The translations under genes and the position numbers were made by a program. Below are positions 1,163 to 62,408 of a DNA stretch of 64,000 nucleotides, piece after piece. The notes under the pieces are model-generated. The model did no database searches and was not told where the DNA came from. It saw only the letters and a list, made by a program, of their open reading frames with translations. The stretch covers positions 8,294 to 72,293 of the forward strand of contig JARLJD010000109.1 of NCBI GenBank assembly GCA_031291395.1. Reading direction: 5' to 3'. How positions within the stretch are numbered: the stretch's first letter is position 1; every line of letters starts with the position of its first letter. The stretch is from Alphaproteobacteria bacterium (GTDB taxonomy: Bacteria > Pseudomonadota > Alphaproteobacteria > UBA9219).

Positions 1163-1268
1163 GATTAAGAAAAACGGTAGAACAAGAGCGGCATGATTCC
1201 CTCCCCCATAGAGGGGGAGGGGACTCTATCGTTTTTGTCGCGTCATTTGTCTCACTTATTCCCTCATG
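1163..1268. repeat. MITE-like repeat family A, short (collapsed) copy
   Basis: ggcatgattccctcccccatagagggggaggggactctatcg, a perfect hairpin ccctccccc/gggggaggg. Flanks (gattaagaaaaacg...cacttattccctcatg) are shared with the copy at 1650-1868. Confidence 0.7.
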
Positions 1269-1275
1269 CCCCCTT

Positions 1276-1608
1276 CTAGCTGTTCCTGTCCGACTTAATG
1301 ATTTCCGTCATTGTGATCCCAAGCCGATCCTCGACCACCACGACTTCGCCGCGGGCGACGAGGCGGTTGTTGACGTAGATGTCGATCGCTTCGCCGACTT
1401 TGCGGTCGAGCTCGATGACCGCGCCGCGGCCAAGTTTCAGCAAATGGCTGACCTGCATTTCGGCTTTGCCCAGCACGGCGGCTACTTCGACCGGAATGCC
1501 GTACACGGCGTCGAGATCGCTCGCCGTCACCTGCTGCCCGTCTTTGGGTGTTTCCCCGGCATTGGCTTCAAGCTCGGTCAGGGTAAGGGATTCTTTGTCA
1601 TCCGCCAT
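1276..1608 (-). CDS. fliN: flagellar motor switch protein FliN
   Basis: 110 aa. Conserved FliN/SpoA C-terminal domain (VPVEVAAVLGKAEMQVSHLLKLGRGAVIELDRKVGEAIDIYVNNRLVARGEVVVVEDRLGI). Confidence 0.85.
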   Translation of the reverse strand: MADDKESLTLTELEANAGETPKDGQQVTASDLDAVYGIPVEVAAVLGKAEMQVSHLLKLGRGAVIELDRKVGEAIDIYVNNRLVARGEVVVVEDRLGITMTEIIKSDRNS

Positions 1609-1649
1609 AAAAAACTCCTGTTAAGGCTGCATAGGGAAGCAAGTAAACT

Positions 1650-1868
1650 TGTTTAGCGATTAAGAAAACGATGGGGCAAGAGCGGCAGGATTCCCTCCCC
1701 CTCTATGGGGGAGGGTTAGGGGGGGGGGATCGCGCCGCAAGGATCGTCTTCTGACTTGCAAAGACATCTCATGCGGAAACATCACCCCCACCCTAACCCT
1801 CCCCCATAGAGGGGGAGGGGATTCTATCGCTTTTACGGCATCTTTTGCCTCACTTATTTCCTCATGTG
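1650..1868. repeat. MITE-like repeat family A, full-length copy with inverted terminal hairpins
   Basis: Left end attccctccccctctatgggggagggttaggg; right end cccaccctaaccctcccccatagagggggaggggattc. The ends are inverted repeats of each other, each containing a GGGAGGG/CCCTCCC hairpin. Confidence 0.75.
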
Positions 1869-1870
1869 GT

Positions 1871-2530
1871 TTAAGAAGAAGGAAGTATCGTTTCCGCAAT
1901 CGCGTTTAGCGTTTTCTGCGTATCGCGATAGGCGCCGCCGTCGGCCCATTCGATGCGGCAATCGCCTGCTGCTACGGTATCGTCGGCCAGAACGATTACT
2001 TTGCCGGAATAGGCGCGTTTTGTCGCGATTTCCTCAATGCGTTCGTTCAGCGCGTCGAATTCGCCCTCGTGAACGCGAACGACCAGACGCGGCTCGCGCG
2101 ACATCTCGCGGATCGTGTCGTTGATAAGAGCCTCGATTTCCATCATACCGCTTTGCGCCGTAAAGGTCGGCAAAATCTTTTTTAGAGCTGCAAGGGACAA
2201 ACGGCGGATTTGTTCTTCCTGCTCTTGCGCCAAAGCGCCGATATGTTCGATCAGAACCGACACGTTTTGCTCGACCTTGGCCAGCGTCGCGGTCAAAAGC
2301 GCTGTTTGGTCGTCCTTTCCCGCCGTCTTGCCCGCGCCGAATCCCGTGTCGTAAGATTCTTTCTTCAGCGCGTCGATTTGCTCCGGCTTCATCAAAACCG
2401 GCTTGCGTTCGGGCGCGCGGTGAACAACCGCCGCGTCGTCGAACGAACGTTCGAACATGAATTTGCGCACGGGCGTACCCGGCGGCATTCCCTTTTTGTC
2501 TTTGAGGAGGGGTTCAGTAGACAAGCTCAT
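1871..2530 (-). CDS. fliH: flagellar assembly protein FliH / FlbE-like
   Basis: 219 aa. The C-terminal region ([19 protein letters not shown]...[23 protein letters not shown]) resembles the FliH C-terminus. It sits between fliG and fliN, as flbE does in Caulobacter. Confidence 0.65.
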
Positions 2531-3542
2531 CTTCCTCCGCGCCCTTAGCTATGACGATTTCGCCCTTGGCTGCCAAATCCTTGGCGGTCGCGACCAGATG
2601 CGCCTGCGCCTCTTCGACGTCGCGCAAACGCACGGGACCCATCGAGGCGATATCTTCCTTGAGAAGTTTTCCAGCGCGCTCCGACATATTCGAGAAGAAC
2701 AAATCCTTGATCGACTCCGAAGACCCCTTGAGCGCCGTCGGCAATTTGGTTTTGTCCGCGATGCGCAAAATCGCCTGAATGGCGGCGCCGTCGAGCTTCG
2801 ACAGATCCTCGAACGTGAACATCAGCCCCTTGATCTTTTCCGCCGCGTCGCGGTTGCGTTCTTCCAATGCCGTCATAAATTTGGCTTCGTTGGCTCTGTC
2901 GAGATTGTTGAAGATTTCCGCCATCATTTCATGCGAGTCGCGGCGGTTGGTGCGCGCCAGATTGCTCATGAACTCGTTGCGCAGCGTGCGTTCGATGTCG
3001 TCGATCACGTCTTTTTGCACCGCCTCCATCCGCAGCATGCGGGCGATGACTTCCATCGCAAAGCTTTCAGGCAATTGCGTCAGAACGCGTGCGGCGTGGT
3101 CGGCCTTGATCTTGGAAACCACCACGGCCACCGTTTGCGGATATTCGTTTTTCAGATAGGCGGCCAGAACCGTTTCGTTGACGTTTGCCAACTTGTCCCA
3201 CATCGTGCGACCGGCAGGGCCGCGGATGTCTTCCATAATGTTGCTGACGCGGCTTTTGTCCAGGACCTTCATCAAAAGGCGCTCGGTCGATTCCAGCGTG
3301 CCGACGGTGCCGCCCGAGGACGACATCTGCTCGGCAAAATCGACGAAGAGCTTTTCGACCAAAGTCGCGCTGACATTGCCGAGATTGGCCATAACCTGCG
3401 ACAGATCCTTGATCTCGTCGTCGTTCATGTGGCCGAAAATGCGCGCAGCGTACTCTTCGCCCAGAGCCAGAATGAATAGCGCGGATTTTTCGAGGCCGGA
3501 AAGGGATTTCACGTCCTCGCGGAGGCGTTGACCGGCAGCCAT
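2514..3542 (-). CDS. fliG: flagellar motor switch protein FliG
   Basis: 342 aa. FliG-like N-terminal, middle and C-terminal domains. The start overlaps the fliF stop. Confidence 0.9.
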
Positions 3543-5254
3543 TAATGATTCTCCTGATACATCCAGTTGCGCAGGATTCCGATCGCTTCGTCAGGATGCT
3601 TGTCGACGATTTCGCCGACCTTGCGCAGGGAGGAAGCCTTGACGCGTCCGTCGACGCGCGAAATGTCGATCATGCGTTCGATCTCGGACTCCGCCGCCGC
3701 GGCTGCGGACTCGGCTGAGGACTCGCCGCCTGACATGCCTGCGGGAGCCGGCAACTGCGCGACGTTGCCGCCGCCGCTGAGCAAAGCCTGCTGATCGGAG
3801 CCGACGGATCCCGCCGTCTCCAGAACTTTGCGTAAGATGGGGCGCACAACCAAAAGCACGACCAAAAGTCCGATCAAAGCGAGAATTAGAGTCTCCGCCG
3901 CATGGAAAATGTCGGCGCGGGGAATGCCCATCAAAAGATCGGGGTTGCCGGAGGTCGCTCCTTTATCCTGTTCGCCCTGCGCGAATTGCATATCGGTCAC
4001 GTCCAGCGTATCGCCGCGCGAAGCGTCGAAATTCACCGCCGATTTCACCAGATCCTTGATTTTGGCAAGCTCTTCAGGCGTGCGCGGGGCATAAGTGGTC
4101 GTTTTGCCGTCGGCCGAGGTTTTATAGGTGCCGTCGACGACGACCGCGATCGACAGTCGGCGAACGCGCCCGCTTTCGCGCACCTGATTGCGCACCGTTT
4201 TGTTGATTTCGTAATTGATCGTCTCTTCGGAGTGTTTGTTGTTGCTGGTTGGCGTGCTTGCCGCTGCCGGTGTTGCGCCTCCGTTCGCGATTTGCTGCGG
4301 CGTGGCGGGAAGATTGGTGGAGACGGACACGGCGCCGGAATTGCCTTCGGAATTCGTGTCCGTTTCGTTTGTGTTTTGTGTCGAACGTACAACCTGACTG
4401 TCAGGGTCGAAGATTTCCGAACTGGTGGTAATGCGGTCGAAATCCAGATCGGCCGATACCTGCGCCCTTACTTTGCCAAAGCCCAGCGTTTGGGTCAGCA
4501 AATCCTCGATCTTGCGCGTCTGCGCTTGTTCATACTGGATGCGCTGATCTTCCTGATCGTCTTGGCTGTCGCCCGCGGCATTATTGCTGGGGCGCGCCAA
4601 AAGATCACCCCTGTCGTCGACGATCGAAACCTCGTTGGGCTGCAACTGCGGCACGGCGGCTGCGATCAGATGCTGAATAGCGGCGATTTGCTCGCGTGAT
4701 AGAACCGCGCCGTTGCGCATTTTAAGGAAAATGCTGGCGGTTGCCGTCTGGGTCGCGTGGCTGAACAATTCGCGCTGCGGCAGCACCAGATGCACGCGCG
4801 CGCTGTTGATGGGATCAAGTGAGCTTATCGTTCGCTCCAATTCTCCTTCCAGCGCGCGCAGGTGATTGATGTTTTGCACAAAGCTGGTGGTGCCAAAGCC
4901 TTCTTTCTGATCGAAAATCTCGTACCCGACCGAACCGCCTCTGGGCAGGCCATCGGACGCCATCAGCATGCGTATTTTTCCGACCTGATCGGATGGGACG
5001 CGGATCAGGCTGCCGCTTGAATCGACCTGATAGGGGATTTTAAGGGCGTCGAGCTTTCCCGCGATCGCTGCCGAGTCATGCTGGTCGAGTTCCGTATAAA
5101 GCAAGGCAAGCGGCGAGGTCGAAATCCGCGTCGTGATAAAGCCAAGCATGCCCAGCAAACTGACGAGAACGACCGCAATCGCCGCCAGCCGCATAGGCCC
5201 CAGATTGCGCAGAGTCTGCAAAAATGCATTCACCTGTTTATTCTCCTGCTCCAC
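3542..5254 (-). CDS. fliF: flagellar M-ring protein FliF
   Basis: 570 aa. An N-terminal TM segment, a conserved periplasmic ring domain, a low-complexity linker and a C-terminal TM segment. Confidence 0.9.
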
Positions 5255-5555
5255 GGATGAAGAATCCTCGGACGAGGCTCCTTAGGCTTTAACCAAACAT
5301 CGGCACAAATTGCCCACTGATTCTTTCTATTGGTTAAACAATGGAGGGGGCTTTATGAAAATTTCCTTAACAAAGTCGGCAGAAATTGCCGCCACACCCT
5401 ATTTCTGTGTCTTTCATGCAACACAAGGGATTGGGTGCGGTTGCCAAGTTACTACTACATAATGATGTTGGTCAAGAGATTAACTATATCGTTTCAGCGT
5501 TTGTCTGTCCGTTTGTGAATAAGTGACTCAATGGGCAACCCCAAGCCGAAGGTGC

Positions 5556-5600
5556 CTTCATCCCCCCCCAAAAGGGGGAGCGGGAATCCCGCCGGTTTTG
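5556..5600. repeat. partial family-A repeat (solo hairpin, reverse orientation)
   Basis: cccccccaaaagggggagcgggaatcccgcc, the same GGGGGAG...GGGAATCC end motif as the other family-A copies. Confidence 0.4.
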
Positions 5601-5603
5601 CAT

Positions 5604-6683
5604 TCAATTTGCCGCCCGCAGACTTCGCTGGCGCAGCATATGATCGGCAAGGACGCAGGCGATCATAGCCTCGCCGACGGGAACTGCGCGGATTCCGACG
5701 CAGGGGTCGTGTCTGCCTCTGGTAATGATATCAGTGTTTTGTCCTGCGGTGTTGATTGTTTGCCGCATCTGCAGGATGGAGCTTGTCGGTTTGACGGCAA
5801 AGCGGGCTGTTATGTCTTGCCCGTTGGAAATGCCGCCCAGAATGCCGCCTGCGTTGTTGGACAGGAACTGCGGTTTGCCGTCGGAACTCATGCGCATTTC
5901 GTCGGCGTTTTCTTCGCCTGTCAGGTTGGCCGCGCCAAACCCCGCGCCGATTTCAACGCCCTTGACTGCGTTGATCGTCATCAAAGCGCGGGCGATGTCG
6001 CTGTCGAGTTTGTCATAGATCGGCTCGCCCCAACCCGCAGGAACGCCGGACGCCACGACTTCAACCACAGCGCCGATGGACGAGCCGTTTTTACGTATTT
6101 TGTCCAGATCATCTGCCCATACTGCGGCGGCTGTGGGATCGGGGCAAAACAGCGGATTTTGATCGACCGCGTTCCAATCCCATCGGTTGCGGTCGATTTT
6201 ATGCGCGCCGATTTGCACGACTGCGCCGCAGATTTTTATGGAATCGCCAAGGATTTTACGCGCCACAGCGCCCGCAGCGACGCGGCATGCCGTCTCGCGC
6301 GCCGAGGAACGCCCGCCGCCGCGATAATCGCGAATTCCGTATTTCACCCAGTAAGTGTAATCGGCATGACCCGGGCGGAATTTATCCTTGATGTCGTCAT
6401 AGTCCTTCGACCGCGTGTCGGTGTTTTCGATCACGAGGCTGATTGGCGCGCCAGTCGTGACTCCCTCGAAAACGCCAGACAGAATCTTGACCTTGTCCCC
6501 CTCCTGCCGCTGCGTCGTGAAACGCGACTGCCCGGGCCTGCGCTTGTCGAGCCACGGCTGAATGTCAGTTTCGGTTAAGGGAATAAGCGGCGGACAGCCG
6601 TCGATCACGACGCCGATCGCAGTGCCGTGGCTTTCGCCCCATGTGGTAAAACGGAAAATTGTGCCGAGGCTGTTGGAGGACAT
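5604..6683 (-). CDS. aroC: chorismate synthase
   Basis: 359 aa. The N-terminus [11 protein letters not shown] and GRSSARETA signature motifs are present. Confidence 0.9.
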
Positions 6684-16830: not shown

Positions 16831-16903
16831 GAGAAAGCTCTAACGCCGAAAACAAATTCACTAATCCTCTCACATCGACTAACCCCTAACCACACTCTCC
16901 CCC

Positions 16904-23792: not shown

Positions 23793-24164
23793 ATGAAAAA
23801 TCTGACGGTTCTGGTTTTGGCGGCGCTTGTCGTTTTTTATGCGCCCGAGGCAAAAGCCGTGAGGATAGCGCCGACCGTGCAGGTTTTTATTCCGCAGGTG
23901 CCGTCTTTGCCGACTGTGCCAAGCTATCCGACGCAGGCTCCTCAAATTCCGAGCGTGGGGTTTATGCCGACGGTTACGACTATTTCTCAAGCGCCCCTGT
24001 CGCCGCAGACGACTTATGCGCCTCAAACGCAATATTACAATACGCAGCCGCCTCTCGTTCCCACAGCGCCTACCGCAGAGCAAGACACAACCGCGCCAAC
24101 GGTGCAAAGGTATAATTCCAATCCGCAGATCTTGCCGCAGGTTCAGATTTATACGGATCCTTGA
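23793..24164 (+). CDS. secreted proline/glutamine/threonine-rich low-complexity protein
   Basis: Signal peptide MKNLTVLVLAALVVFYAPEAKA followed by PTVQ/PQ-rich repeats. Confidence 0.4.
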   Translation: MKNLTVLVLAALVVFYAPEAKAVRIAPTVQVFIPQVPSLPTVPSYPTQAPQIPSVGFMPTVTTISQAPLSPQTTYAPQTQYYNTQPPLVPTAPTAEQDTTAPTVQRYNSNPQILPQVQIYTDP

Positions 24165-24211
24165 TTTTTAATAAGTGACTCTGTTTGACAGTTTCAAATA
24201 ACGGTGAAGCG

Positions 24212-24395
24212 AAAGCGGCTGGATTCCCGCCCCCTTGCGGGGAGGGTCAGGGTGGGGGCGTGCCGCAAAAGCAAGTTTGGGGCTATGTAAAATCTTGCCG
24301 CAAGGTAAACCCCAACCGCATTTCCCAGCCGTTCTCCCCCCTCCCTAACCCTCCCCGCAAGGGGGAGTGGATTCCACCGTTCTTGCGGAACCGCC
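24212..24395. repeat. MITE-like repeat family A, full-length, variant sequence
   Basis: gcggctggattcccgcccccttgcggggagggtcagggtggggg ... ccctaaccctccccgcaagggggagtggattcc. Confidence 0.7.
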
Positions 24396-24628
24396 GTTTT
24401 TTCCGCGACTATTGCTTCGCAGCATTCGATCTGCTATAGGACGTTTTATGACTTCGACCGCCTCATCCTTGAACGCTTGTTCCGCTTCTTTGCGCGGCGC
24501 GTTTAGCTATGGCTGGTTTTATTGGTTCCGGTAACACCGGATCATACACACGCTTTTCCCCTCACATCGTTAATCTCTTGTAATCAGCCGCTGAAACGGC
24601 GGCGTAACTATTCAGTTAGGCAAAGATC

Positions 24629-28890: not shown

Positions 28891-28947
28891 AGCAAGCTGA
28901 AGGGAATCTGAAGGGGAGAAATTTTTTTGATTCTGATGACAAAGGCC

Positions 28948-28995
28948 GTCATTCCAGCGAAAGCGGGAATCCAGCGCGAGCGATAGCGAGCCTAT
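28948..28995. repeat. repeat family C, solo arm
   Basis: gtcattccagcgaaagcgggaatccagcgcgagcgatagcgagc. It is related to the paired copies at 38388-38530 and 52083-52210. Confidence 0.6.
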
Positions 28996-29213
28996 GAGTC
29001 CAGCGGCGTTTGTTATAGAAACGCCGCTTTTTATATCGCGCGGACGTGCCTCAAGATGGATTTGCGCTTTCGCAGGAACAACGACTGTTTAGCGCGTGTC
29101 ATAAAATGAACAAGAAAATGGTTTAAAAAAAAATCAGGGGGGTGGTCTTTGGCCGCCTTTGTTCGGTCAGAAACCATCTTTCGCAAGATTAACGATCAGC
29201 AAAGGAGGGTGTC

Positions 29214-29639: not shown

Positions 29640-29659
29640 TCTGAAATTTCTTGCAGTAA

Positions 29660-29715
29660 TGGCGGGATTCCCTCCCCCATAGAGGGGGGGGGATTCTACC
29701 GTTTTTGCAGCGGAG
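29660..29715. repeat. MITE-like repeat family A, short copy
   Basis: ggcgggattccctcccccatagagggggggggattctaccg. Confidence 0.7.
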
Positions 29716-30169: not shown

Positions 30170-30493
30170 TGCGGTTTTCTCCCTAATTTTGACGAAAGAG
30201 CGGAAGTGATTTTGATTCTTTGGCGCGATACCTTCACAGTTGGAATTTTATTCGTGGAGAGTGTCAAAAATGTGGCGAAGCGAAAAGTAGGAGCGGCTCC
30301 CAGCCGCGACCCATTTCAAAAAAAAAGAGTCACGGCAGGAAATCCCTTCAACAAGAAAACGCTACCGGCGCTATTTCTGCAATGGGAAATTCCCCGCCCC
30401 CATAATCGTTATTGCAAGCCTTGGCTGAACATATTACGAAAATGGGACGCGGGCTTGAGCTGCGGCGTGCTGTGAATAACAACCGATCATCAA

Positions 30494-35570: not shown

Positions 35571-38282
35571 TCACCCGTTCGCCGCATGCAATTCTTCTTT
35601 GATTTGCTGCAGGTGCCCGTCGAGGATTCCGAGGGTGTCGACCAGTTCCGTTAGAATCTCCGCTTGTTTTTCGAGTTGGACTTGCGTGGCAAAATCAGAG
35701 ACGGATCTGGTTGGCGCAAGCGTCGGCTTGGCGGTCAGACGGGTTTCTATTTTATCGAGTTGCCCTGCAATTTCTCCGACCAGACTGGCGCGCGAGGCTT
35801 CGATCTGCGCCGACACCTGAAACCACTGGTCGAGGAATTGCTGCTGCATCTCCGGCGGAATGGAACATGTCGGCATCGGGATGGGTTTGCCCGCTTCCGC
35901 TTGCGCGGCCTCTGCCGCCTGACGAGTCGCGGCGAGCTCTTGACCGAACGCGCTGAGCGCCAGATTGGTTTCCCCCTGCGCGGCGGCGATCTTCTCGCCA
36001 AGCGCGGCGATGTCGTTTTGTTCGCTTAGATTCTGCAGTTCTTCCCGCAAATTCTGGCGCAAGTCGCCGGGCAAGGCCGAAGCCAGAATGGCGACTTTGC
36101 CGTTCAGTTCGGCCAGTTCCGCGACTTTTTCCTCTAGAACGGAAAGCTGGTTTTGCTCCTTCAAAACTTGCAGCTCCTCCCGCAAATTCTGGCGCAAATC
36201 GCCGGGCAAAGCGGAGGCCAAAATGGCGACTTTGCCGTTCACTTCGGCCAATTCCGAAATCTTTGCGCCGAGATCGGCTATATCGTTGTGCGCGGTTATG
36301 CGTTGCAAATCTTCCTGTAAATTGGAGCGCATTTGGTCGGGCAGGGCGGTGACAAACGCGGCAATCCGTTCGTGCAATGCGGTCAACGATGCCGCTACGG
36401 CCTCCTTCTGCTCCGCATGATTTTGCGCGAGGTTTTGTTCCAAAGCCCCGGCCAAGCCCGCTTGCGCGTCTTTCTGTTCGTCAAGTTTGATTTGAAGCGC
36501 CGCCAATTGTCCCGCGATATGTTCAAACTGGCTTGCTAAGGGAACCAAAGCGGATTCCGGCGCGGCTCCAACCTGAATGTTTGTTTGCCCCTCCAGCTTG
36601 TTTTGCACCAAGGCCAATTGGCTTGCGATTTGTTCAAGCTGACTTTTCAAAGGCGCTGCAATCGCGTCCGGCGCAGCGCCTTTTTCCAAGGCCTCCGCAA
36701 AATAGGCATGCGCGTTTGTTTGCTCGTCCAGTTTAACCTGTAAGACATCCAACTGCCCCGCGATATGTTCGATCTGGTCGGTCAAAGGAGCCAATACGGA
36801 TTCTTGCGTTGCCGCGCCGACAGGCGTGTTCGCCTTTTCGTCCAGCCCGTTTTGCAGCGTCGTCAACTGATCCTTGATCTGGTTCAACCGTTCGGCCAGC
36901 GCGGCGAATTGCGCTTCGGGGGCGTTGTTTTTGATGTTCTCCGTCGTTTCGGCCAGAACTTTTCCGCCCGCTTGCAGCAAATTAATCGCGCCGAACAAAC
37001 GCTCGCCCAGATCGTCCGCCGTCGAGGAAAGTTTGTTTAGCGTTTCCCCTGCTTGTTCGGCGTTCGACTTCAAACCGATTTCGCTGGTGGCCAAAGACTG
37101 CAACGTTTGCGCGATCTGCTTGCCCGTTATTTGCGTAATCTCGGCAAGCCCTTGAGCGCGATCCTGAATAAGCGGGATCAAGCGGGTCAACTGATCGGCG
37201 GCGTGCGCGTGCGCGTTTTTCAAATTTTCCGCCGAACCCGTCATCTCGGCAATCGCCTGTTTAATCTGCATATCGCCACTTTGCCCGCTTTTGGCAATAT
37301 TTTGTAAAATCGTTTCGACTTTTTGCGCTAGCGCGGCGACGGACTGCTTTTGTAGCGCAACGGCATCGGTCAGCGTCGCGGCCTGCGCGCGGATGGTTTC
37401 CGAGTCGCCGGAGATCGCCTTCATCATTGCTTCGAACAGAGAGCGCGAACCGCCTTCAAACCGCATGCGCACGGGGCCTTGTTCGCTGAGCAGCGACAGA
37501 TCGGGCAGGTGGCTGAATTGATATCGCGCCAGATCAACGGCGCGCGCCAACTCGCCGATCATGTCCTGCCGTTCGATGCCCCAAATGGCGGTGCGCATGT
37601 CGCCGCGCGCCATATTCTGGATGCTTTGCGCCAGCGCGCGCATGGGTGCGGATTGCCGGTCGCGTAAAACCAAATAAATGCCGGCGGCGCAAGCGGCCGC
37701 GATGATCAGGCTGCTCCAACTGACCAAGGTCAGTAGCATCGCCCAGAACTGCATCCCTTTTTGCGCCGCAAGCCGCGCCGAGGCATTGGCGGCCGCGTCC
37801 CGCGTTTCCAAAACCGGCAAAGTCGCATAAAGCGGCGCAAGATCGGCGGCGGTGAATTCATTTGCCCCTGTTGCGTCCGCAGGCGCGTCGATTTTCTGCA
37901 GCGCTCCATCGAACATCGCGGCAATCGCGGTCAATTCGCGGTGCGTCTCGGCGGAAGTTGTGTCAGGCAGATGCGCGACGATATCATCCGCCGATTTGAT
38001 CAGTTCTTTCATATCGGCAAAGTTCGACGCGTCGCGCGTCGAGACATATTTCTGCGCAAGGCCGACAAATCCCCCATAGCCCCAATCGCGGCGCAAACTG
38101 TCGAACATATCCTGATTGCCGCCCAAAGCGTTATCGGGCGCGGCCAGCACTGTCTCCGCGCGGTCGAGCTGATATTTCATATACCCCGCCCCGCCGATCA
38201 TCGCCACGCAGACAAAGACTGTAAGGCTAAGCGCAAAAGCAGCAAAACGACTGACGCCGGAGAAGGGAGAGTTGGGGGACAT
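35571..38282 (-). CDS. large membrane-anchored HAMP-domain coiled-coil protein with internal tandem repeats
   Basis: Two TM segments flank a periplasmic region of about 200 aa. A HAMP-like segment follows (PMRALAQSIQNMARGDMRTAIWGIERQDMIGELARAVD), then about 600 aa of heptad-rich sequence with repeated blocks (e.g. VAILASALPGDLRQNLREELQ twice). The start is set at the internal Met preceding TM1. Confidence 0.45.
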   Translation of the reverse strand: MSPNSPFSGVSRFAAFALSLTVFVCVAMIGGAGYMKYQLDRAETVLAAPDNALGGNQDMFDSLRRDWGYGGFVGLAQKYVSTRDASNFADMKELIKSADDIVAHLPDTTSAETHRELTAIAAMFDGALQKIDAPADATGANEFTAADLAPLYATLPVLETRDAAANASARLAAQKGMQFWAMLLTLVSWSSLIIAAACAAGIYLVLRDRQSAPMRALAQSIQNMARGDMRTAIWGIERQDMIGELARAVDLARYQFSHLPDLSLLSEQGPVRMRFEGGSRSLFEAMMKAISGDSETIRAQAATLTDAVALQKQSVAALAQKVETILQNIAKSGQSGDMQIKQAIAEMTGSAENLKNAHAHAADQLTRLIPLIQDRAQGLAEITQITGKQIAQTLQSLATSEIGLKSNAEQAGETLNKLSSTADDLGERLFGAINLLQAGGKVLAETTENIKNNAPEAQFAALAERLNQIKDQLTTLQNGLDEKANTPVGAATQESVLAPLTDQIEHIAGQLDVLQVKLDEQTNAHAYFAEALEKGAAPDAIAAPLKSQLEQIASQLALVQNKLEGQTNIQVGAAPESALVPLASQFEHIAGQLAALQIKLDEQKDAQAGLAGALEQNLAQNHAEQKEAVAASLTALHERIAAFVTALPDQMRSNLQEDLQRITAHNDIADLGAKISELAEVNGKVAILASALPGDLRQNLREELQVLKEQNQLSVLEEKVAELAELNGKVAILASALPGDLRQNLREELQNLSEQNDIAALGEKIAAAQGETNLALSAFGQELAATRQAAEAAQAEAGKPIPMPTCSIPPEMQQQFLDQWFQVSAQIEASRASLVGEIAGQLDKIETRLTAKPTLAPTRSVSDFATQVQLEKQAEILTELVDTLGILDGHLQQIKEELHAANG

Positions 38283-38387
38283 GATGATGAAGGAAATGGG
38301 AACGGGGAAGGCGGGGGGATTATGGTAAATTTTGGGTGGAAAAGCAATCGGTTCATGGGGCATGCTTACCCCCACGTCAAAAAAAAT

Positions 38388-38530
38388 GTCGTTATTCCAG
38401 CGAAAGAGGGAATCCATCTTGAGGCGCGTCTGCGCCGATAAAAACAACTGCATTTTCAATGGAACTGCAGTTGGACTTTTATGCTCGCTATCGCGAGCGA
38501 TGGATTCCTGCTTTCGCGGTAATGACGATC
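38388..38530. repeat. repeat family C, full element with terminal inverted repeats
   Basis: gtcgttattccagcgaaagagggaatccatc ... gatggattcctgctttcgcggtaatgacgatc. Confidence 0.65.
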
Positions 38531-42942: not shown

Positions 42943-43881
42943 ATGAAGTTTTCTGGAATCAATGCCATTATTTCCACTCCGTTCACAAATGGGGAAGAAG
43001 TCGACTATGAAAGCCTGTGCAATTTAATCGACAAAATCGTTTGCAAGGGCGTTCACGCGATTACGATATTGGGCGTGGCGAGCGAGGCGCAGAAACTTTC
43101 GGCACAAGAACGGTCTGAAATTGCGGCAAAGGCTTTTGAGACTGTGGCTGGACGCTGTCCTGTTGTCGTGACCACATCCGGCAATGATACGGATGCAGTC
43201 GTTTCAGCCTCGCTTGCGGCGGAACGCGCGGGCGCTGCGGCTGTTATGGTCGCGCCGCCTAAGGGACTGAAATTCAGTCCTGAACTTGTGGAGCATTACA
43301 GCAAAATTGCGCAAGCGATATCCATTCCGATCGTGCTTCAAGACCTGGCCGAAGCGACGGGGGTTGATTTGTCTCCTCGCGCGATGTCTGAATTATTGAA
43401 AGCGGTGCCGCAGATAACGGCGATCAAGCTCGAAACGCCCCCGACTCCGCTGCGGATAAGCGAGACGCGCAAACTTGTTTCGGATGAAATAGCTATTTTG
43501 GGCGGAAACGGTGGCGTCCATTTCTTGAATGAACTGCGCCGCGGCGCGAACGGAGCGATGACCGGCTTTGCGTACACGGAGGCCTTACTGCAAATCTGGA
43601 ATTATTGGAACATTGGGAATCGCGCTGCCGCGGCAAAAAGTTATTTGGAAATTCTTCCTCTGCTCGTTTTTGAATTTCAGCCCAAGATTGGCGTTGCCAT
43701 TCGCAAAGAGATTCTAAAACGGCGAGGATTGATCAAAACGGCGGTTCTGCGGGGCGTTCCCGAAGGGCTTAGTCCTGAAATGCTTTCCGATTTGTCTGAA
43801 ACTCTTGTCGACCTTGGCGTTCAAGAGAGGTATGACGATAGGAGGCGTGAGGAAATAAGTGAGCCTGTTTTGGTGAGTTAG
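42943..43881 (+). CDS. DHDPS-family (class I aldolase) protein, a DapA paralogue
   Basis: 312 aa with the TPF N-terminus and DHDPS-fold motifs. A bona fide dapA exists at 14447-15343, so this is probably another aldolase of the family. Confidence 0.6.
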   Translation: MKFSGINAIISTPFTNGEEVDYESLCNLIDKIVCKGVHAITILGVASEAQKLSAQERSEIAAKAFETVAGRCPVVVTTSGNDTDAVVSASLAAERAGAAAVMVAPPKGLKFSPELVEHYSKIAQAISIPIVLQDLAEATGVDLSPRAMSELLKAVPQITAIKLETPPTPLRISETRKLVSDEIAILGGNGGVHFLNELRRGANGAMTGFAYTEALLQIWNYWNIGNRAAAAKSYLEILPLLVFEFQPKIGVAIRKEILKRRGLIKTAVLRGVPEGLSPEMLSDLSETLVDLGVQERYDDRRREEISEPVLVS

Positions 43882-43899
43882 AATCAGTGGTGCCGCAAC

Positions 43900-44055
43900 A
43901 GCGGCGGAATCCCCTCCCCCTCTATGGGGGAGGGTTAGGGTGGGGGTGGTGGTTATACACAAACTGCTTTTGATTATGCAAAACAGTTGTTGTGGCACGT
44001 TCGCCCCCACCCTACCCCTCCCCCATAGAGGGGGAGGGAATCACGCCGTTTTCGT
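43900..44055. repeat. MITE-like repeat family A, full-length
   Basis: gcggcggaatcccctccccctctatgggggagggttagggtggggg ... cccccaccctacccctcccccatagagggggagggaatc. Confidence 0.75.
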
Positions 44056-44155
44056 TTCACTGTTATTTTAATCGTCAAACAGATTTGCTTATTTCCTCAC
44101 GGCGACATAACTGATTTCTGGCGTTTTTGAAAGATTGACTCGATAGGAAAAAATC

Positions 44156-44999: not shown

Positions 45000-46202
45000 A
45001 TGGTGGAAACGGCTGATTTTCTCGTGCTGGGCGCAGGCGTGATCGGCTTGAACATTGCGCGCGAATTGGCTGAGCGGCACAAGGGCAGCCGCATCGTTGT
45101 ATTGGAAAAGGAGCAATCGCTTGGCGCCCACGCCAGCGGTCGTAACAGCGGCGTATTGCATGCCGGTTTCTATTATACGGCGGACAGCCTGAAGGCCAAG
45201 TTTACGCGCGACGGCAATCGGGAAATGACATCCTTTTGCGATACGCGTGGTTTGCGCATCAACAAGTGCGGTAAACTGGTCGTCGCGCGCGACGAAAGCG
45301 AACTTTCCGGACTGGAAACGCTTCTTCAGCGAGGCCGCGCGAACGGCGTCGATCTGCACAGGATAACGGCGAAAGAAGCCAAAGAAATCGAGCCGCGGGT
45401 TAAAACGTGCCAATACGCCCTCTATTCTCCGACAACATCCTCCGTTGATCCTTGCGAAGTGATGAGCGCCTTGGGTAAAGAGGCAAACAGCAATGGGGTT
45501 GATCTACGTTTCGGCGAAAAATATCTTGGGTTTAAATCCGGACGCGTCATAACGAGCCGAGGCGCTTACGCATGCGGGTATGTCGTGAATGCCGCTGGTT
45601 TATTTGCCGACCGCGTCGCGCGGGATTTTGGGTTCAGCCAAGGCTATTATCTTCTGCCGTTCAAAGGATTGTATCTTTATTCCGACGAGCCTGCAGGCGA
45701 ATTATCGACCCACATCTATCCTGTGCCTAATCTGGCGCACCCGTTTTTGGGATCCCATTTCACCGTAGCGGTTGACGGCCATATCAAGATCGGGCCAACT
45801 GCCATACCCGCGTTTTGGCGCGAGCAGTACACTTGGCGCGATAATTTCAACCTTCAAGAGCTTGTCGAGACGGCGTGGCGGCAAGTCGGCTTGCTGTTTA
45901 ACGCCGGTTTTGATTTCAACCGTTTGGCTGTCGAGGAACTTCATAAATATTACCGCCCCTATCTTGTCGCGCAAACCACCGCTCTTGCCGAGGGGGTTAG
46001 GGTGGGGGATTACAAAACCTGGGGGAAACATGGAATTCGAGCGCAACTTGTCAGGAAAGACACAAAGTCTCTCGAAATGGATTTTGTTTTGGAAGGCGAC
46101 AAAAAGTCGATTCACGTGCTTAACGCCGTTTCGCCAGCCTTCACTTGCTCGATTCCGTTCTCTCAATACGTTGTTGATCGGATAGCGGATTTTGTTCGAT
46201 AG
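45000..46202 (+). CDS. FAD-dependent oxidoreductase, L-2-hydroxyglutarate oxidase/dehydrogenase-like (LhgO)
   Basis: N-terminal dinucleotide-binding fold DFLVLGAGVIGLNIAREL. The DAO-family length and motifs resemble LhgO. Confidence 0.6.
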   Translation: MVETADFLVLGAGVIGLNIARELAERHKGSRIVVLEKEQSLGAHASGRNSGVLHAGFYYTADSLKAKFTRDGNREMTSFCDTRGLRINKCGKLVVARDESELSGLETLLQRGRANGVDLHRITAKEAKEIEPRVKTCQYALYSPTTSSVDPCEVMSALGKEANSNGVDLRFGEKYLGFKSGRVITSRGAYACGYVVNAAGLFADRVARDFGFSQGYYLLPFKGLYLYSDEPAGELSTHIYPVPNLAHPFLGSHFTVAVDGHIKIGPTAIPAFWREQYTWRDNFNLQELVETAWRQVGLLFNAGFDFNRLAVEELHKYYRPYLVAQTTALAEGVRVGDYKTWGKHGIRAQLVRKDTKSLEMDFVLEGDKKSIHVLNAVSPAFTCSIPFSQYVVDRIADFVR

Positions 46203-54981: not shown

Positions 54982-57507
54982 ATGCGCATAAGCCTTATCT
55001 GCGGCGGCCCTTCCGCCGAGCGCGGCATATCCTTAAACTCCGCGCGGTCGGCGATGGATCATCTGACGCCATTGGGGTGGGAGATCGTGCCGTTCTATTG
55101 CGATCTGGAACGCCATTTCTATCGCTTGTCGCCTTCGCAGCTTTATTCCAACACGCCATCCGATTTCGATTTCAAACTGGCGCATACGGCGCAGCCTTTG
55201 ACGGAAAGCGAATTCATCGCAGCGTGCCGCGAAACCGATCTTGTTTTTCCCGCCATTCACGGCGCGTTCGGCGAGGACGGGCAGTTGCAGGAATTGCTGG
55301 AAGCGCACGACATTCCCTTTGTCGGCTCTCCCGCCGCCGCATGCCGGTTGATGTTCGATAAGGCGATCGCCAACACGCATATGGCGCAGCACGGCTTTGC
55401 GACATTACCAAACTGCCGCATCGACGAAAGCGACGCGCCGGATGTTCGGTTGAAAAAAGCGAGCGATTTCTTTGCGCGCACTCACATCGACAAAGCTGTC
55501 GTGAAACCTTCCGCCGGAGGGTCGAGCCTCGGCGTCGCAAGCGCGGTAACGCCGCAAGAAGCCGCCGCGCGCGCCGAGGATATTTTTGCGCAAAAGCACG
55601 GTGCGCAAGCTCTGATTGAGCCTTATTGCCAAGGCCGCGAATTCACCGTCGTCGTTTTGCAAAACAAAAAGGGCGAGCTGGTCGCGTTGATCCCGACCGA
55701 AATCGACCTGATCGGCGGCGATCTGTTCACGTTCCGCCATAAATATCTGCCGACCTGCCACGTCGAATATCATTGCCCGCCGCGCTTTGCCGACGACGTG
55801 ATCGCGCGCATTCAGAAAGCCGCCGAGGTTCTGTTTACCTTTTTCGACATGCGCGATTTCTCGCGCCTCGACGGCTGGCTGTTGGACGACGGGCGTTTGA
55901 TTTTCTCGGATTTCAATCCTATCTCGGGCATGGAGCAAAACAGTTATCTGTTCATTCAGGGCAGCCGCATCGGCTTCACCCACGGCGATACGCTGCGGTA
56001 TATCGTCGCGCACGCGGCGGAACGGTATGGGATCAAAGCCCCTCTCCCCCCCCTTGGGGGGAGAGGGGTTGGGGTGAGGGGGGAAGTTGGGGTTTGTGAA
56101 TCCCTCGTCCCCCCTCACCCCCGCATCAAGTGCGGGGCAGGCTCTAACCCTCTCCCCCCAAGAGGGGGGAGAGGGAATCCGCCCACAAACATCCGCGTTC
56201 TTTTCGGCGGAACGACGGCGGAACGCCAAGTCTCTTTGATGTCCGGCACAAATGTGTGGCTGAAATTGTTGCACAGCGCGGATTATATGCCCGCGCCTTA
56301 TATCCTCGCGCCGGAACATGAAATCTGGCAATTGCCTTACAGCTTCACCCTCAATCACACGGTCGAGGAAATCCTCGCGCGGTGCGCCGAATCCGAAAAT
56401 ATTGTTGCGCGGCTGAAAGTCCTCGTCCCGCCTCTGCGCCAGCGTTTGGGCTTGCCGCCCTTGCCCGCCAACGCTTTTATCCAACCGCGCCGCATGAGCC
56501 TCGATCAATTCTGTCGGGAATCCGCCGATGAAAACGCCTTCGTGTTCATTGCCCTTCACGGCGGCGAGGGCGAGGACGGGACGTTGCAGGCGAAATTCGA
56601 CAGCTACGGACTTGCCTATAACGGCTCCGCGCCTGCGGCCTCGCATGTGTGCATGGATAAAAGCGCGACGGGCGACGTTTTGCGCGCTTTGAACGATCCG
56701 CTTTTGACCTCTGCCGGAAAAGTTTTGCTGACGGCGGGGCAGGGGGGACGGGCCGAAGCGATTTGGGCGGACGCCGTGCAAAAATTGAAAACCGCCGACA
56801 TCCTCATCAAGCCGCAAGCCGACGGCTGTTCCGCGGGAGTCGTGCGTTTGCAATCCGCGCAAGAATTGAAACTGTATCTGCAAGCTTTGGCGCAAGGGCA
56901 AACGATGCTGCCCGCGGGCACGCTGGCGCATCAACCGATGATGATCGAATTGCCTGAACAGGCGGACGCCTTCATGCTCGAACCCTTTATCGTCACTGAC
57001 GCTATTTATATCTCCGGCCTTCATCTTACGCACACGCCGCGAACCGGCTGGATCGAATTGACGGTCGGCGTGTTGGAAGAAAAAGGCGTTTATCACGCCC
57101 TGTCGCCCAGCATCACCGTGGCCAAAGGCCATGTCCTCTCGCTGGAGGAAAAATTTCAGGGCGGCACAGGCGTCAACCTGACCCCGCCGCCTGCCGACAT
57201 CATTTCCGGCGAGCAAATCGACCTGATCAAAAGCAAAATTGAAAAAACCGCCAATGCGCTAGGCATCGAAGGCTACGCCCGCATCGATATTTTCTTTAAC
57301 ACGCGCAGCAACCAGACAATGGTCATCGAAGCCAACACTTTACCGGGACTCACCCCCTCGACGGTTATTTATCATCAATCCCTAGCCGAAACCCCGCCGC
57401 TTGCGCCGCGCGAGTTTTTGGCGAAATTGGTGGAATTCGGCAGGGAACGGCAGGCGCGAGGATTGGAAGAAACGCGATCTGTGGCGCAAGCGGTGAGAGA
57501 ATTATAG
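54982..57507 (+). CDS. tandem (double) D-alanine--D-alanine ligase-like ATP-grasp protein, linker encoded by a family-A repeat
   Basis: Residues 1 to about 353 and about 400 to 841 each resemble a complete Ddl (N-domain MRISLICGGPSAERGISL / IRVLFGGTTAERQVSLMSG; E.NT.PG(L/M)T C-terminal motifs). The roughly 47-codon linker is the repeat copy at 56041-56183 with no stop codon in this frame. Confidence 0.6.
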   Translation: MRISLICGGPSAERGISLNSARSAMDHLTPLGWEIVPFYCDLERHFYRLSPSQLYSNTPSDFDFKLAHTAQPLTESEFIAACRETDLVFPAIHGAFGEDGQLQELLEAHDIPFVGSPAAACRLMFDKAIANTHMAQHGFATLPNCRIDESDAPDVRLKKASDFFARTHIDKAVVKPSAGGSSLGVASAVTPQEAAARAEDIFAQKHGAQALIEPYCQGREFTVVVLQNKKGELVALIPTEIDLIGGDLFTFRHKYLPTCHVEYHCPPRFADDVIARIQKAAEVLFTFFDMRDFSRLDGWLLDDGRLIFSDFNPISGMEQNSYLFIQGSRIGFTHGDTLRYIVAHAAERYGIKAPLPPLGGRGVGVRGEVGVCESLVPPHPRIKCGAGSNPLPPRGGRGNPPTNIRVLFGGTTAERQVSLMSGTNVWLKLLHSADYMPAPYILAPEHEIWQLPYSFTLNHTVEEILARCAESENIVARLKVLVPPLRQRLGLPPLPANAFIQPRRMSLDQFCRESADENAFVFIALHGGEGEDGTLQAKFDSYGLAYNGSAPAASHVCMDKSATGDVLRALNDPLLTSAGKVLLTAGQGGRAEAIWADAVQKLKTADILIKPQADGCSAGVVRLQSAQELKLYLQALAQGQTMLPAGTLAHQPMMIELPEQADAFMLEPFIVTDAIYISGLHLTHTPRTGWIELTVGVLEEKGVYHALSPSITVAKGHVLSLEEKFQGGTGVNLTPPPADIISGEQIDLIKSKIEKTANALGIEGYARIDIFFNTRSNQTMVIEANTLPGLTPSTVIYHQSLAETPPLAPREFLAKLVEFGRERQARGLEETRSVAQAVREL
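56041..56183. repeat. MITE-like repeat family A copy lying in-frame inside a coding region
   Basis: cctctcccccccccttggggggagagggg ... ccccctcacccccgcatcaagtgcggggcaggctctaaccctctccccccaagaggggggagagggaatccgcc. Confidence 0.7.
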
Positions 57508-62075: not shown

Positions 62076-62152
62076 TTTTATCTTTCTTTCGCCTTTATTC
62101 TCGTTTCTTATACTGTGACTTGAAGTGATTTTAAACTAAACTTGCCACAGAA

Positions 62153-62335
62153 ACGGCGGAATCCCCTCCCCCTCGCGGGGAGGGTTAGGGAGGGGGGAGA
62201 GCGACTGGGAAAGGCGGTTGGGAATGAGGAACGATCTTGCTGCAAGATTTCTTATAATTCCAAATTTGGTCTCTTGCGGAACTCCCCCCTCCCTAACCCT
62301 CCCCGCGAGGGGGAGGGGATTCTACCGCCCTTGCG
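62153..62335. repeat. MITE-like repeat family A, full-length
   Basis: aacggcggaatcccctccccctcgcggggagggttagggagggggg ... cccccctccctaaccctccccgcgagggggaggggattctaccg. Confidence 0.75.
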
Positions 62336-62408
62336 GCACTGCTTCTTTCGCTTATAAAAGAGGCTCATTTATTCTCTCAGATGCCTAACCCCTAACCCCC
62401 GCCTTCCA

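Follow-up and report, generated by a model that had tools for sequence, protein, structure and literature searches.

Palindromic repeats with a potential intrastrand triplex core on both sides of fliN in an alphaproteobacterial flagellar operon

The flagellar gene fliN on contig JARLJD010000109.1 of an uncultured alphaproteobacterium lies between two copies of a genome-specific, non-coding palindromic repeat, both members of one family that recurs elsewhere in the 64-kb stretch of DNA analysed here (the window). The family is a new, lineage-specific member of the BoxC class of intrastrand triplex repeats, which has already been described, and not a new kind of element. The reading that we consider probable as a whole is that a genome-specific palindromic repeat built around a triplex motif was inserted beside fliN, collapsed in one of its forms, spreads in the manner of REPINs (hairpin-forming doublets of repetitive extragenic palindromic, or REP, sequences) and has a near-neutral effect on the host operon.

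The elements that flank fliN

The short element (1137-1268, 132 bp) is situated between the stop codon of fliN and a helix-turn-helix (HTH) gene, and the long element (1624-1868, 245 bp) between the stop codon of fliH (1871) and the start of fliN (1608). The short element is a 'singlet', which is palindromic from end to end, has a single G-hairpin and lacks a third G-strand. Its hairpin, CCCTCCCCC-ATAGA-GGGGGAGGG (1199-1221), is abutted by the GANTC sites GATTC (1195) and GACTC (1222). The long element is a 'doublet' of two inverted arms of roughly 100 nt each, separated by about 55 nt of central sequence, and each arm contains a triplex-motif unit. The left unit (1693-1728, plus strand), which has 8 of 9 triads and is also a canonical G-quadruplex motif, consists of a C-arm (1693-1701), the loop TCTAT, a G-arm (1707-1715), the loop TTA and the third strand GGGGGGGGG(G) (1719-1728). 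The right unit (1785-1819, minus strand), which reads CCCTCCCCC-TCTAT-GGGGGAGGG-TTA-GGGTGGGGG on that strand, has all nine triads.

An earlier note on this DNA had claimed that paralogous elements with common flanks lie on both sides of fliN, and a repeat search bears this out: 1199-1268 and 1797-1866 are 87% identical over 70 nt. In the same search, the inverted arms of the long copy (1666-1727 and 1785-1846) are 84% complementary. The right ends that had been proposed for the two elements, 1268 and 1868, stand, and the left ends are moved farther out by the terminal inverted repeats, to about 1137 and 1624. These termini, GAGGRAATAAGTGAG and CTCACTTATTYCCTC, are inverted repeats that pair with each other in the predicted fold, and the terminal motif occurs 12 times at three or fewer mismatches against 1.7 expected, with the six best matches all at element ends. 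RNA fold prediction, a check suggested in the earlier note, folds both elements end to end. The minus strand of 1615-1875 reaches -132.4 kcal/mol (z = -10.1) with more than 25 contiguous base pairs, and that of 1125-1280, with paired termini, reaches -57.1 kcal/mol (z = -4.7).

An alignment of all arms of the family reads, from the outside to the inside, as the terminus GAGGRAATAAGTGAG, a variable stretch of 30-50 nt, CGGCGG-GANTC, the hairpin, TTA and GGG(T/A)GGGGG; the copies flanking fliN have in common a shorter arm type on the side that faces the upstream gene. The hairpin pattern CCCTCCCCC-N5-GGGGGAGGG matches the window five times (1199, 1693, 1797, 43912 and 44016), and none of 100 shuffled sequences contains it. 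GANTC, the target of the CcrM methylase, adjoins every family hairpin; the elements contain 19 such sites in their 1472 bp, or 12.9 per kb, versus 2.9 per kb elsewhere in the window. A Pfam search of the translated open reading frames (ORFs) of the elements gave no match.

The core module as a potential intrastrand triplex

The module carried by each arm consists of CCCTCCCCC, a 5-nt loop, GGGGGAGGG, TTA and GGGTGGGGG, in other words a 9-bp G:C hairpin and, after it, a G-strand in mirror image. In antiparallel purine-motif triplexes the third strand is the mirror image of the purine strand, with T or A opposite A. The third strand of the module mirrors the purine arm GGGGGAGGG in just this way, with T or A opposite the single A. 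Nine of nine triads are present at 1819 (minus strand), 43912 (plus) and 44038 (minus) and eight of nine at 1693 (plus), with a 3-nt second loop of TTA or GTA, and the arms at 24229/24349 and 62164/62297 have the same triplex layout with 8-bp stems. The doublet units thus contain the three parts by which a class II (purine-motif) potential intrastrand triplex, in the BoxC/PIT/ITxF sense, was defined, namely a pyrimidine block, its Watson-Crick complement and an antiparallel-mirror third block, where stems measure 8-15 nt and loops 1-6 nt. Nine of the 12 canonical G-quadruplex motifs in the window also fall inside family elements. As far as sequence can tell, the core is a purine-motif potential intrastrand triplex of the BoxC/PIT/TMECO class, in the form of a sequence variant that excludes strict TMECO.

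The mirror (triplex) rule holds across many phyla. A scan for the hairpin pattern that took one genome per species found at least 119 loci (L001-L119), a figure that describes breadth and not copy number; the source genome is not among the matches listed. Among the matches listed, hairpin loci occur in Alpha-, Gamma- and Deltaproteobacteria, and further in Bacteroidota, Nitrospirota, Planctomycetota, Chloroflexota, Gemmatimonadota, Verrucomicrobiota, Armatimonadota and Bacillota; the hairpin CCCTCCCCC-N5-GGGGGAGGG with a mirror G-tail is found in at least 10 phyla. At nearly all of the loci the hairpin is followed by 2-3 nt and then by GGG[T/A]GGGGG. Variants of the hairpin carry mirror tails as well: GGGGGAGAG occurs with GAGAGGGGG, GGGGGAAGG with GGATGGGGG, and GGGGGAGGA and GGGAGAAGG are followed by AGGTGGGGG and GGAAGAGGG, respectively. 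When the second loop is set to 3 nt, 90 of 202 G-rich tails mirror their arms perfectly in the antiparallel sense versus 5 in the parallel sense, and permuted pairs of arms and tails give 3.3%.

Such tracking of the purine arm by the third strand, position by position across variants, would mean that there is selection on folded single-stranded DNA. It could then be argued that the hairpin with its mirror G-strand does not arise as a side effect of palindromes rich in G+C but is a pan-bacterial functional unit, selected for its folded single-stranded (triplex or quadruplex) state and serving as a recognition or priming element for a copying machinery, and that this unit may have been captured into a larger composite element in the alphaproteobacterium studied here. 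If the genome encodes a CcrM-type methylase, the GANTC at every hairpin foot could then tie the behaviour of that element to cell-cycle methylation. We regard this reading as decidedly improbable.

Insertion into a compact operon

The orthologous operons of three relatives (loci L124, L127 and L128), whose FliH proteins are 75%, 67% and 66% identical to that of the window, have the gene order fliF-fliG-fliH-fliN-flbD-flhA. In these operons fliH and fliN are 20, 11 and 15 nt apart, and fliN and flbD 11, 17 and 10 nt. Neither the short nor the long element is present in any of the three. The native ribosome-binding context of fliN (TAACAGGAG...ATG) is kept in the relatives and reappears just downstream of the long element in the window, where the sequence directly after the element is TTAACAGGAGTTTTTTATG and its counterpart in L128 is TAACAGGAGCTTGATATG. 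The long element thus sits exactly between the stop codon of fliH and the ribosome-binding site of fliN, and the short one likewise fills the space from a stop codon to the ribosome-binding site that comes next. G-hairpins, of which the 64-kb window contains 11, are likewise lacking in about 74 kb from five relatives. All six Logan contigs of the same strain have an end inside the hairpins that adjoin fliH and the HTH gene, as expected where a multi-copy repeat breaks de Bruijn assembly.

A further insertion is found in a protein-coding sequence. The tandem Ddl-like protein encoded at 54982-57507 (plus strand; 841 amino acids) has a 37-residue in-frame insert in its inter-domain linker, at 56040-56175, and five Ddl-like homologues of 800-808 amino acids are without this stretch. 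By this comparison 56040-56175 is a third independent insertion, in which the repeat is translated, and the number of insertion sites that are empty in relatives comes to three. The absence of the elements from orthologous sites, together with the absence of G-hairpins from the 74 kb of related sequence, identifies them, at the level of such comparisons, as lineage-specific insertions and not conserved regulatory DNA. The earlier note had itself named conserved sequence at orthologous positions as the observation that would speak against insertion; what the relatives have at these positions is gaps of 10-20 nt.

Relation of the short form to the long form

The same note had described the short copy as the long copy without the segment of about 110 bp between its hairpins, and the two copies agree with this description at a length of 104 nt. 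Once the 104 nt that separate the CCCTCCCCC direct repeats (1702-1805) are taken out of the long copy, the remainder is collinear with the short copy (118 of 146 positions identical), and the short copy retains the loop ATAGA, as expected after a deletion of this extent. The geometry can be read directly from the two copies; that the short form is a collapsed version of the long form, and the mechanism by which this came about, we infer. The likely event would be slippage of replication from one 9-bp direct repeat CCCTCCCCC to the other on a template that forms a hairpin or triplex, with the loss of 104 nt, and the short copy would then be an instance of the 'palindrome effect' seen in inverted TMECO pairs of Escherichia coli. 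The two copies beside fliN differ at about 15-19% of aligned positions, which excludes an in-place collapse from the neighbouring copy and means that the short one is not a recent derivative of it. What had been called direct evidence of insertion and collapse is therefore upheld for insertion and withdrawn for local collapse.

The opposite order, in which the short form is primary and the long form arose when a palindromic pair of triplex motifs was inserted into the loop of an older outer palindrome, can draw on the bare core pair without outer arms at 56040-56175, and on the report of Di Nocera et al. (PMC3733652) that REP dimers are regularly nested in longer palindromes. Nesting of this kind is nonetheless quite improbable. 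No outer palindrome without a hairpin is present in the window, where every good match to the terminal motif accompanies a hairpin. Single units elsewhere, among the matches listed, keep their G-tail, but the singlets here are without it, as expected from a deletion between hairpins, and inverted pairs in E. coli have been observed to shrink in just this manner (PMC4666352).

Mode of spread

The elements had been labelled miniature inverted-repeat transposable elements (MITEs) in the earlier note, and they do have the terminal inverted repeats, the small size and the lack of coding capacity of such elements. The label is not sustained, as no target-site duplication was found, and neither a parent insertion sequence with the same termini nor a transposase in the 64-kb window. 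The three copies examined for duplications were compared without a near-identical empty site, and no direct repeat was found at them: the bases outside the termini (CAT...ATG and CGT...ACG) are inverted and are thus part of the palindrome. A metagenome scan for the terminus together with the hairpin returned only two chance matches, both without hairpins, so that the composite element appears to be confined to this lineage.

The REPIN architecture, with two inverted units and a spacer, one long hairpin and singlet remnants, is present in full, and the REP tag is missing, as no GTAG or CGTC tag stands next to a hairpin in the arm alignment. The elements probably spread through a trans-acting enzyme that acts on folded single-stranded DNA, as REPINs do. 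It is the combination of doublets and singlets with the lack of a target-site duplication that would favour such a REPIN-like route over cut-and-paste transposition of a MITE. A homologue of the REP-associated tyrosine transposase (RAYT) is encoded at one of the at least 119 hairpin loci (L043; tblastn with an E. coli RayT query). It is flanked by GTAG REPs and not by G-hairpins, and so gives no link to the family.

Two known classes of element could take the place of this looser comparison. If the elements were classical MITEs, they would descend by deletion from an insertion sequence and depend on a DDE transposase that acts in trans on the terminal inverted repeats GAGGRAATAAGTGAG; the long inverted arms, the conserved termini at element ends only, the length below 300 bp, the non-coding sequence, the dispersed intergenic positions and the empty sites in relatives would all suit this origin. 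Such an origin is unlikely, given that the bases adjoining the termini show no duplication, that neither the window nor the metagenome scan provides an insertion sequence or transposase with these ends, that the core module is common to unrelated phyla with different flanks, and that the copy at 56040-56175 has the core pair without the outer arms. If they were REPINs proper, they would consist of inverted REP doublets and decayed singlets, and a single-copy gene elsewhere in the genome would encode the RAYT-type HUH tyrosine transposase that replicates them. Doublets and singlets, the long hairpin, the absence of target-site duplications, the intergenic positions and the restriction to one lineage fit the REPIN description (PMC3116915, PMC3337134), the genome has GTAG-type REPs and so probably a RAYT, and some RAYT-like 'TIRYT' genes are flanked by inverted repeats with GGGGWSAS (PMC3733652), which is a lead only. 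This identity is possible but rather unlikely: the family carries neither tag, the window has no RAYT, the sole RAYT homologue among the hairpin loci belongs with GTAG REPs, and in E. coli Holder et al. saw no connection of TMECO with mobile elements (PMC4666352). The supplements of Di Nocera et al. (PMC3733652) contain no G-rich sequences.

Two other repeat families are present in the window. One is a GTAG-tagged REP, GTAGGAGCGGCTTCCAGCCGCGAC, at 30287, 32169, 32234 (minus strand), 61121 and 61188 (minus strand), which includes inverted, REPIN-like pairs and makes it probable that a RAYT gene lies elsewhere in the genome. The other is a CGTC-tagged REP, CGTCATTCCAGCGAAAGCGGGAATCCA, at 28947 and 38390 (plus strand), within larger inverted matches (28947-29090 and 38383-38527), and is of the type reported for Micavibrio and many Alphaproteobacteria.

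Effect on the operon

The elements are, on their sequence features, not intrinsic terminators. There are no intrinsic terminator-like sites on either strand of 700-2000, and the family hairpins are followed by TTAGGG or GAYTC and not by a U-run. Since sigma-70 promoter-like sites are also absent from 700-2000, the suggestion that the elements supply terminators or promoters finds no consensus site of either type to rest on. At the Rfam gathering threshold no element gives a match, the only matches in the window being an RNase P RNA and two tRNAs; a permissive search matches the element to generic miRNA-precursor hairpins only, below threshold. The elements would be co-transcribed as very stable RNA hairpins that may alter the processing or stability of the mRNA, and the net effect on the operon is most likely near-neutral.

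A selected cis-regulatory function, in which the elements act as a terminator or attenuator, an RNase processing site or a promoter that uncouples fliN and flbD from fliF-fliG-fliH, is very improbable. Both copies do lie exactly in spacers with the downstream ribosome-binding site intact, and RNA hairpins of more than 25 bp could be substrates of a double-strand-specific RNase. However, a selected flagellar function is made less likely by the absence of the elements from the operons of the three relatives, by the occurrence of the family beside unrelated genes, in convergent as well as divergent intergenic regions and within a coding region, and by the lack of terminator-like and sigma-70 promoter-like sites; no regulatory role has been reported for BoxC/TMECO (PMC4666352).

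Several observations weigh against the favoured reading of the family. The strict TMECO pattern, which matches 20 times in loci L001-L119, is not found in the window, since the family has GGGTGGGGG and not GGGNGAGGG as its third block; the copy at 56040 comes nearest to it (GGGAGAGGG ... GGGTGAGGG), with longer stems and a different spacing. The singlets at 1199 and 29670 have no third block and so fall outside the triplex definition, and mirror symmetry could reflect some other constraint, such as a G-quadruplex, protein binding or pairing with the partner arm. With regard to spread, no mobilising enzyme was found, and the 64-kb window encodes no RAYT homologue. The divergence between the two copies beside fliN rules out a collapse in place, and the empty sites in the operon are those of relatives whose FliH is 66-75% identical and not of a close sister strain.

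Comparison with known repeats

The closest described repeat is TMECO (Holder et al. 2015, PMC4666352), earlier named BoxC, and PIT by Hoyne and Maher 2000, a G/C-rich class II intrastrand triplex motif of the form CCCTCNCCC N3-6 GGGNGAGGG N3 GGGNGAGGG with 3610 copies in 262 proteobacterial genomes. According to the same paper (PMC4666352), TMECO is always intergenic in E. coli K-12 MG1655, has TTA or CCG as its second loop, often occurs as inverted pairs, and was shown by circular dichroism and nuclear magnetic resonance to form a triplex. The loci are locally hypervariable between strains, and inverted pairs undergo a 'palindrome effect' that deletes a portion of each unit and leaves a stable stem-loop; no association with known mobile elements and no regulatory role were found (PMC4666352). 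The present family resembles BoxC/PIT/TMECO in its C-rich strand, complementary purine strand and mirror purine strand, in its 9-nt stems, a first loop within 3-6 nt and a second of 3 nt (TTA, as in TMECO type A), and in its intergenic positions, frequent inverted pairs, presence and number that vary between relatives, and decay to a single stem-loop. It differs in its blocks, CCCTCCCCC/GGGGGAGGG/GGGTGGGGG, with one T:A position versus two, and in that its units lie inside a longer element whose arms measure about 100 nt and carry conserved termini as well as GANTC sites; one copy is inside a gene.

REPINs, as set out by Bertels and Rainey (2011, PMC3116915), have in common with the family two inverted palindromic units with a spacer, a long hairpin, singlet remnants, no target-site duplication, intergenic positions and confinement to one lineage. 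Unlike REPINs, the family has no GTAG or CGTC tag, much longer arms, and a triplex/G-quadruplex motif instead of a simple REP stem-loop as its core. The repetitive potential G-quadruplex repeat (rPQS) of Methanomicrobiaceae, which switches between hairpin, antiparallel triplex and G-quadruplex in vitro (Chashchina et al. 2021, PMC8044849), is likewise interspersed and intergenic, with four G-runs and an adjacent C3TC3-type tract. Its order is the mirror image of that found here (G-tail, G-arm, loop, C-arm versus C-arm, loop, G-arm, G-tail), its hosts are archaea, and no long outer arms are described for it. Text matches to GGGGAGGG or CCCTCCCC in the literature were mostly irrelevant, with the exception of this archaeal paper (PMC8044849).

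The family offers a natural example of how BoxC-type triplex-motif repeats behave, with insertion between a stop codon and a ribosome-binding site in a packed, conserved operon, in-frame insertion into a linker, and decay to single hairpins. It extends the BoxC class to an uncultured Micavibrio-like alphaproteobacterial lineage and adds a new composite architecture; no new mechanism is revealed. Correia/NEMIS and ERIC MITEs are non-coding elements of 100-250 bp with terminal inverted repeats, are found in intergenic positions that include operons, and yield hairpin RNAs by co-transcription. Classical MITEs are flanked by a target-site duplication, which is TA in the case of Correia, and have an insertion sequence to which they are related. 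Size, terminal inverted repeats and intergenic insertion are thus features in which the family and Correia/NEMIS/ERIC agree, but no duplication or related insertion sequence was seen here.

The CIR intergenic repeats of Caulobacter are reportedly associated with CcrM sites (Chen and Shapiro, in 2003, are said to have described them). They are alphaproteobacterial intergenic inverted repeats of more than 100 bp with GANTC, a likeness by description only, and CIRs are not known to contain triplex motifs. Rickettsia palindromic elements (RPEs), reportedly the subject of work by Ogata et al. in 2000, provide another parallel. Like RPEs and intragenic REPs (for the latter, Di Nocera et al. 2013, PMC3733652), the copy at 56040-56175 is in frame, in an inter-domain linker and apparently tolerated; it bears no sequence relationship to these repeats and is the only such case in the window.

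Other copies in the window

At least six more copies of the family had been claimed in the earlier note (5556, 24212, 29660, 43900, 56041 and 62153), and the repeat search confirms all of them. A degenerate singlet at about 5520-5612 is directly downstream of the aroC stop codon and upstream of fliF, and a second singlet, at about 29640-29715, lies between convergent genes. The doublet at about 24160-24400, with 8-bp stems and the loops TTGC/GCAA, separates two co-directional genes, and that at 62100-62378 separates the divergent genes miaA and a hexapeptide-repeat gene. The doublet 43847-44108, which lies between a DHDPS-family gene and suhB, has all nine triads in both arms and the termini GAGGAAATAAGTGAG and GCTTATTTCCTC. 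The variant doublet at 56040-56175, of the CCCTCTCCCC/GGGGAGAGGG type, is closest to E. coli TMECO, is without outer arms and lies in frame inside the tandem Ddl-like gene. In total, seven of the eight copies are intergenic, this in-frame copy being the exception, and five of the eight are inverted pairs.

A search of 56030-56185 against E. coli genomes with blastn gave no match, probably because of low-complexity filtering. A further candidate, 45979-46008, was rejected as a family copy: it falls within an lhgO-like coding sequence, lacks a hairpin and probably resembles the family by chance. The 43847-44108 element overlaps the end of the DHDPS-family ORF (42943-43881): its left terminus takes in the stop codon and roughly the last 11 codons (43847-43881), and its insertion may have replaced the native C-terminus of that protein.

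Genomic setting and additional observations

The window is alphaproteobacterial, with a G+C content of 54.8%. Its flagellar operon is encoded on the minus strand and comprises ORFs for fliF (3542-5254), fliG (2514-3542), fliH (1871-2530) and fliN (1276-1608), followed by an XRE-family HTH gene (818-1114; Pfam HTH_31/HTH_3) and an flbD-like sigma-54 activator gene (2-799). The fliH ORF encodes 219 amino acids (217 in the database version) and is 100% identical to P0001, with PF02108. FliN, which has one element on either side of its gene, is 110 amino acids long; an exact-sequence look-up found no record of it, and its orthologues in L124, L127 and L128 carry PF01052 (FliMN_C). The next-best database match of FliH is 75% identical, and the fact that some of its relatives are labelled Bdellovibrionales suggests that the host belongs to a Micavibrio-like lineage.

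The HTH gene has no counterpart at this position in the three relatives, in which fliN is directly followed by flbD. A homologue that is 76% identical is found in another metagenome-assembled genome (locus L132, near recA), where it overlaps a preceding ORF of 83 amino acids in the way of the antitoxin of a toxin-antitoxin pair. Beyond the start of the window, the source strain has a CMAS-type methyltransferase gene after flbD (locus L133, 1803-3068), where the relatives have flhA-flhF; on this gene content, the operon is rearranged at the end downstream of flbD as well.

The C-rich motif CTAACCCCTAACCCC occurs four times on the plus strand, at 16879, 42322, 42343 and 62385, against 0.03 expected. 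Every occurrence is on the coding strand and precedes a start codon by 10-45 nt (a uppP-like gene, efp and the hexapeptide-repeat gene), and the motif is also found about 15 nt before suhB in a relative (L135); it may be a leader or translation-initiation motif. Finally, a 135-nt tandem duplication (35986-36255, 78% identity) lies inside a coiled-coil-like ORF of 962 amino acids (35571-38459, minus strand).

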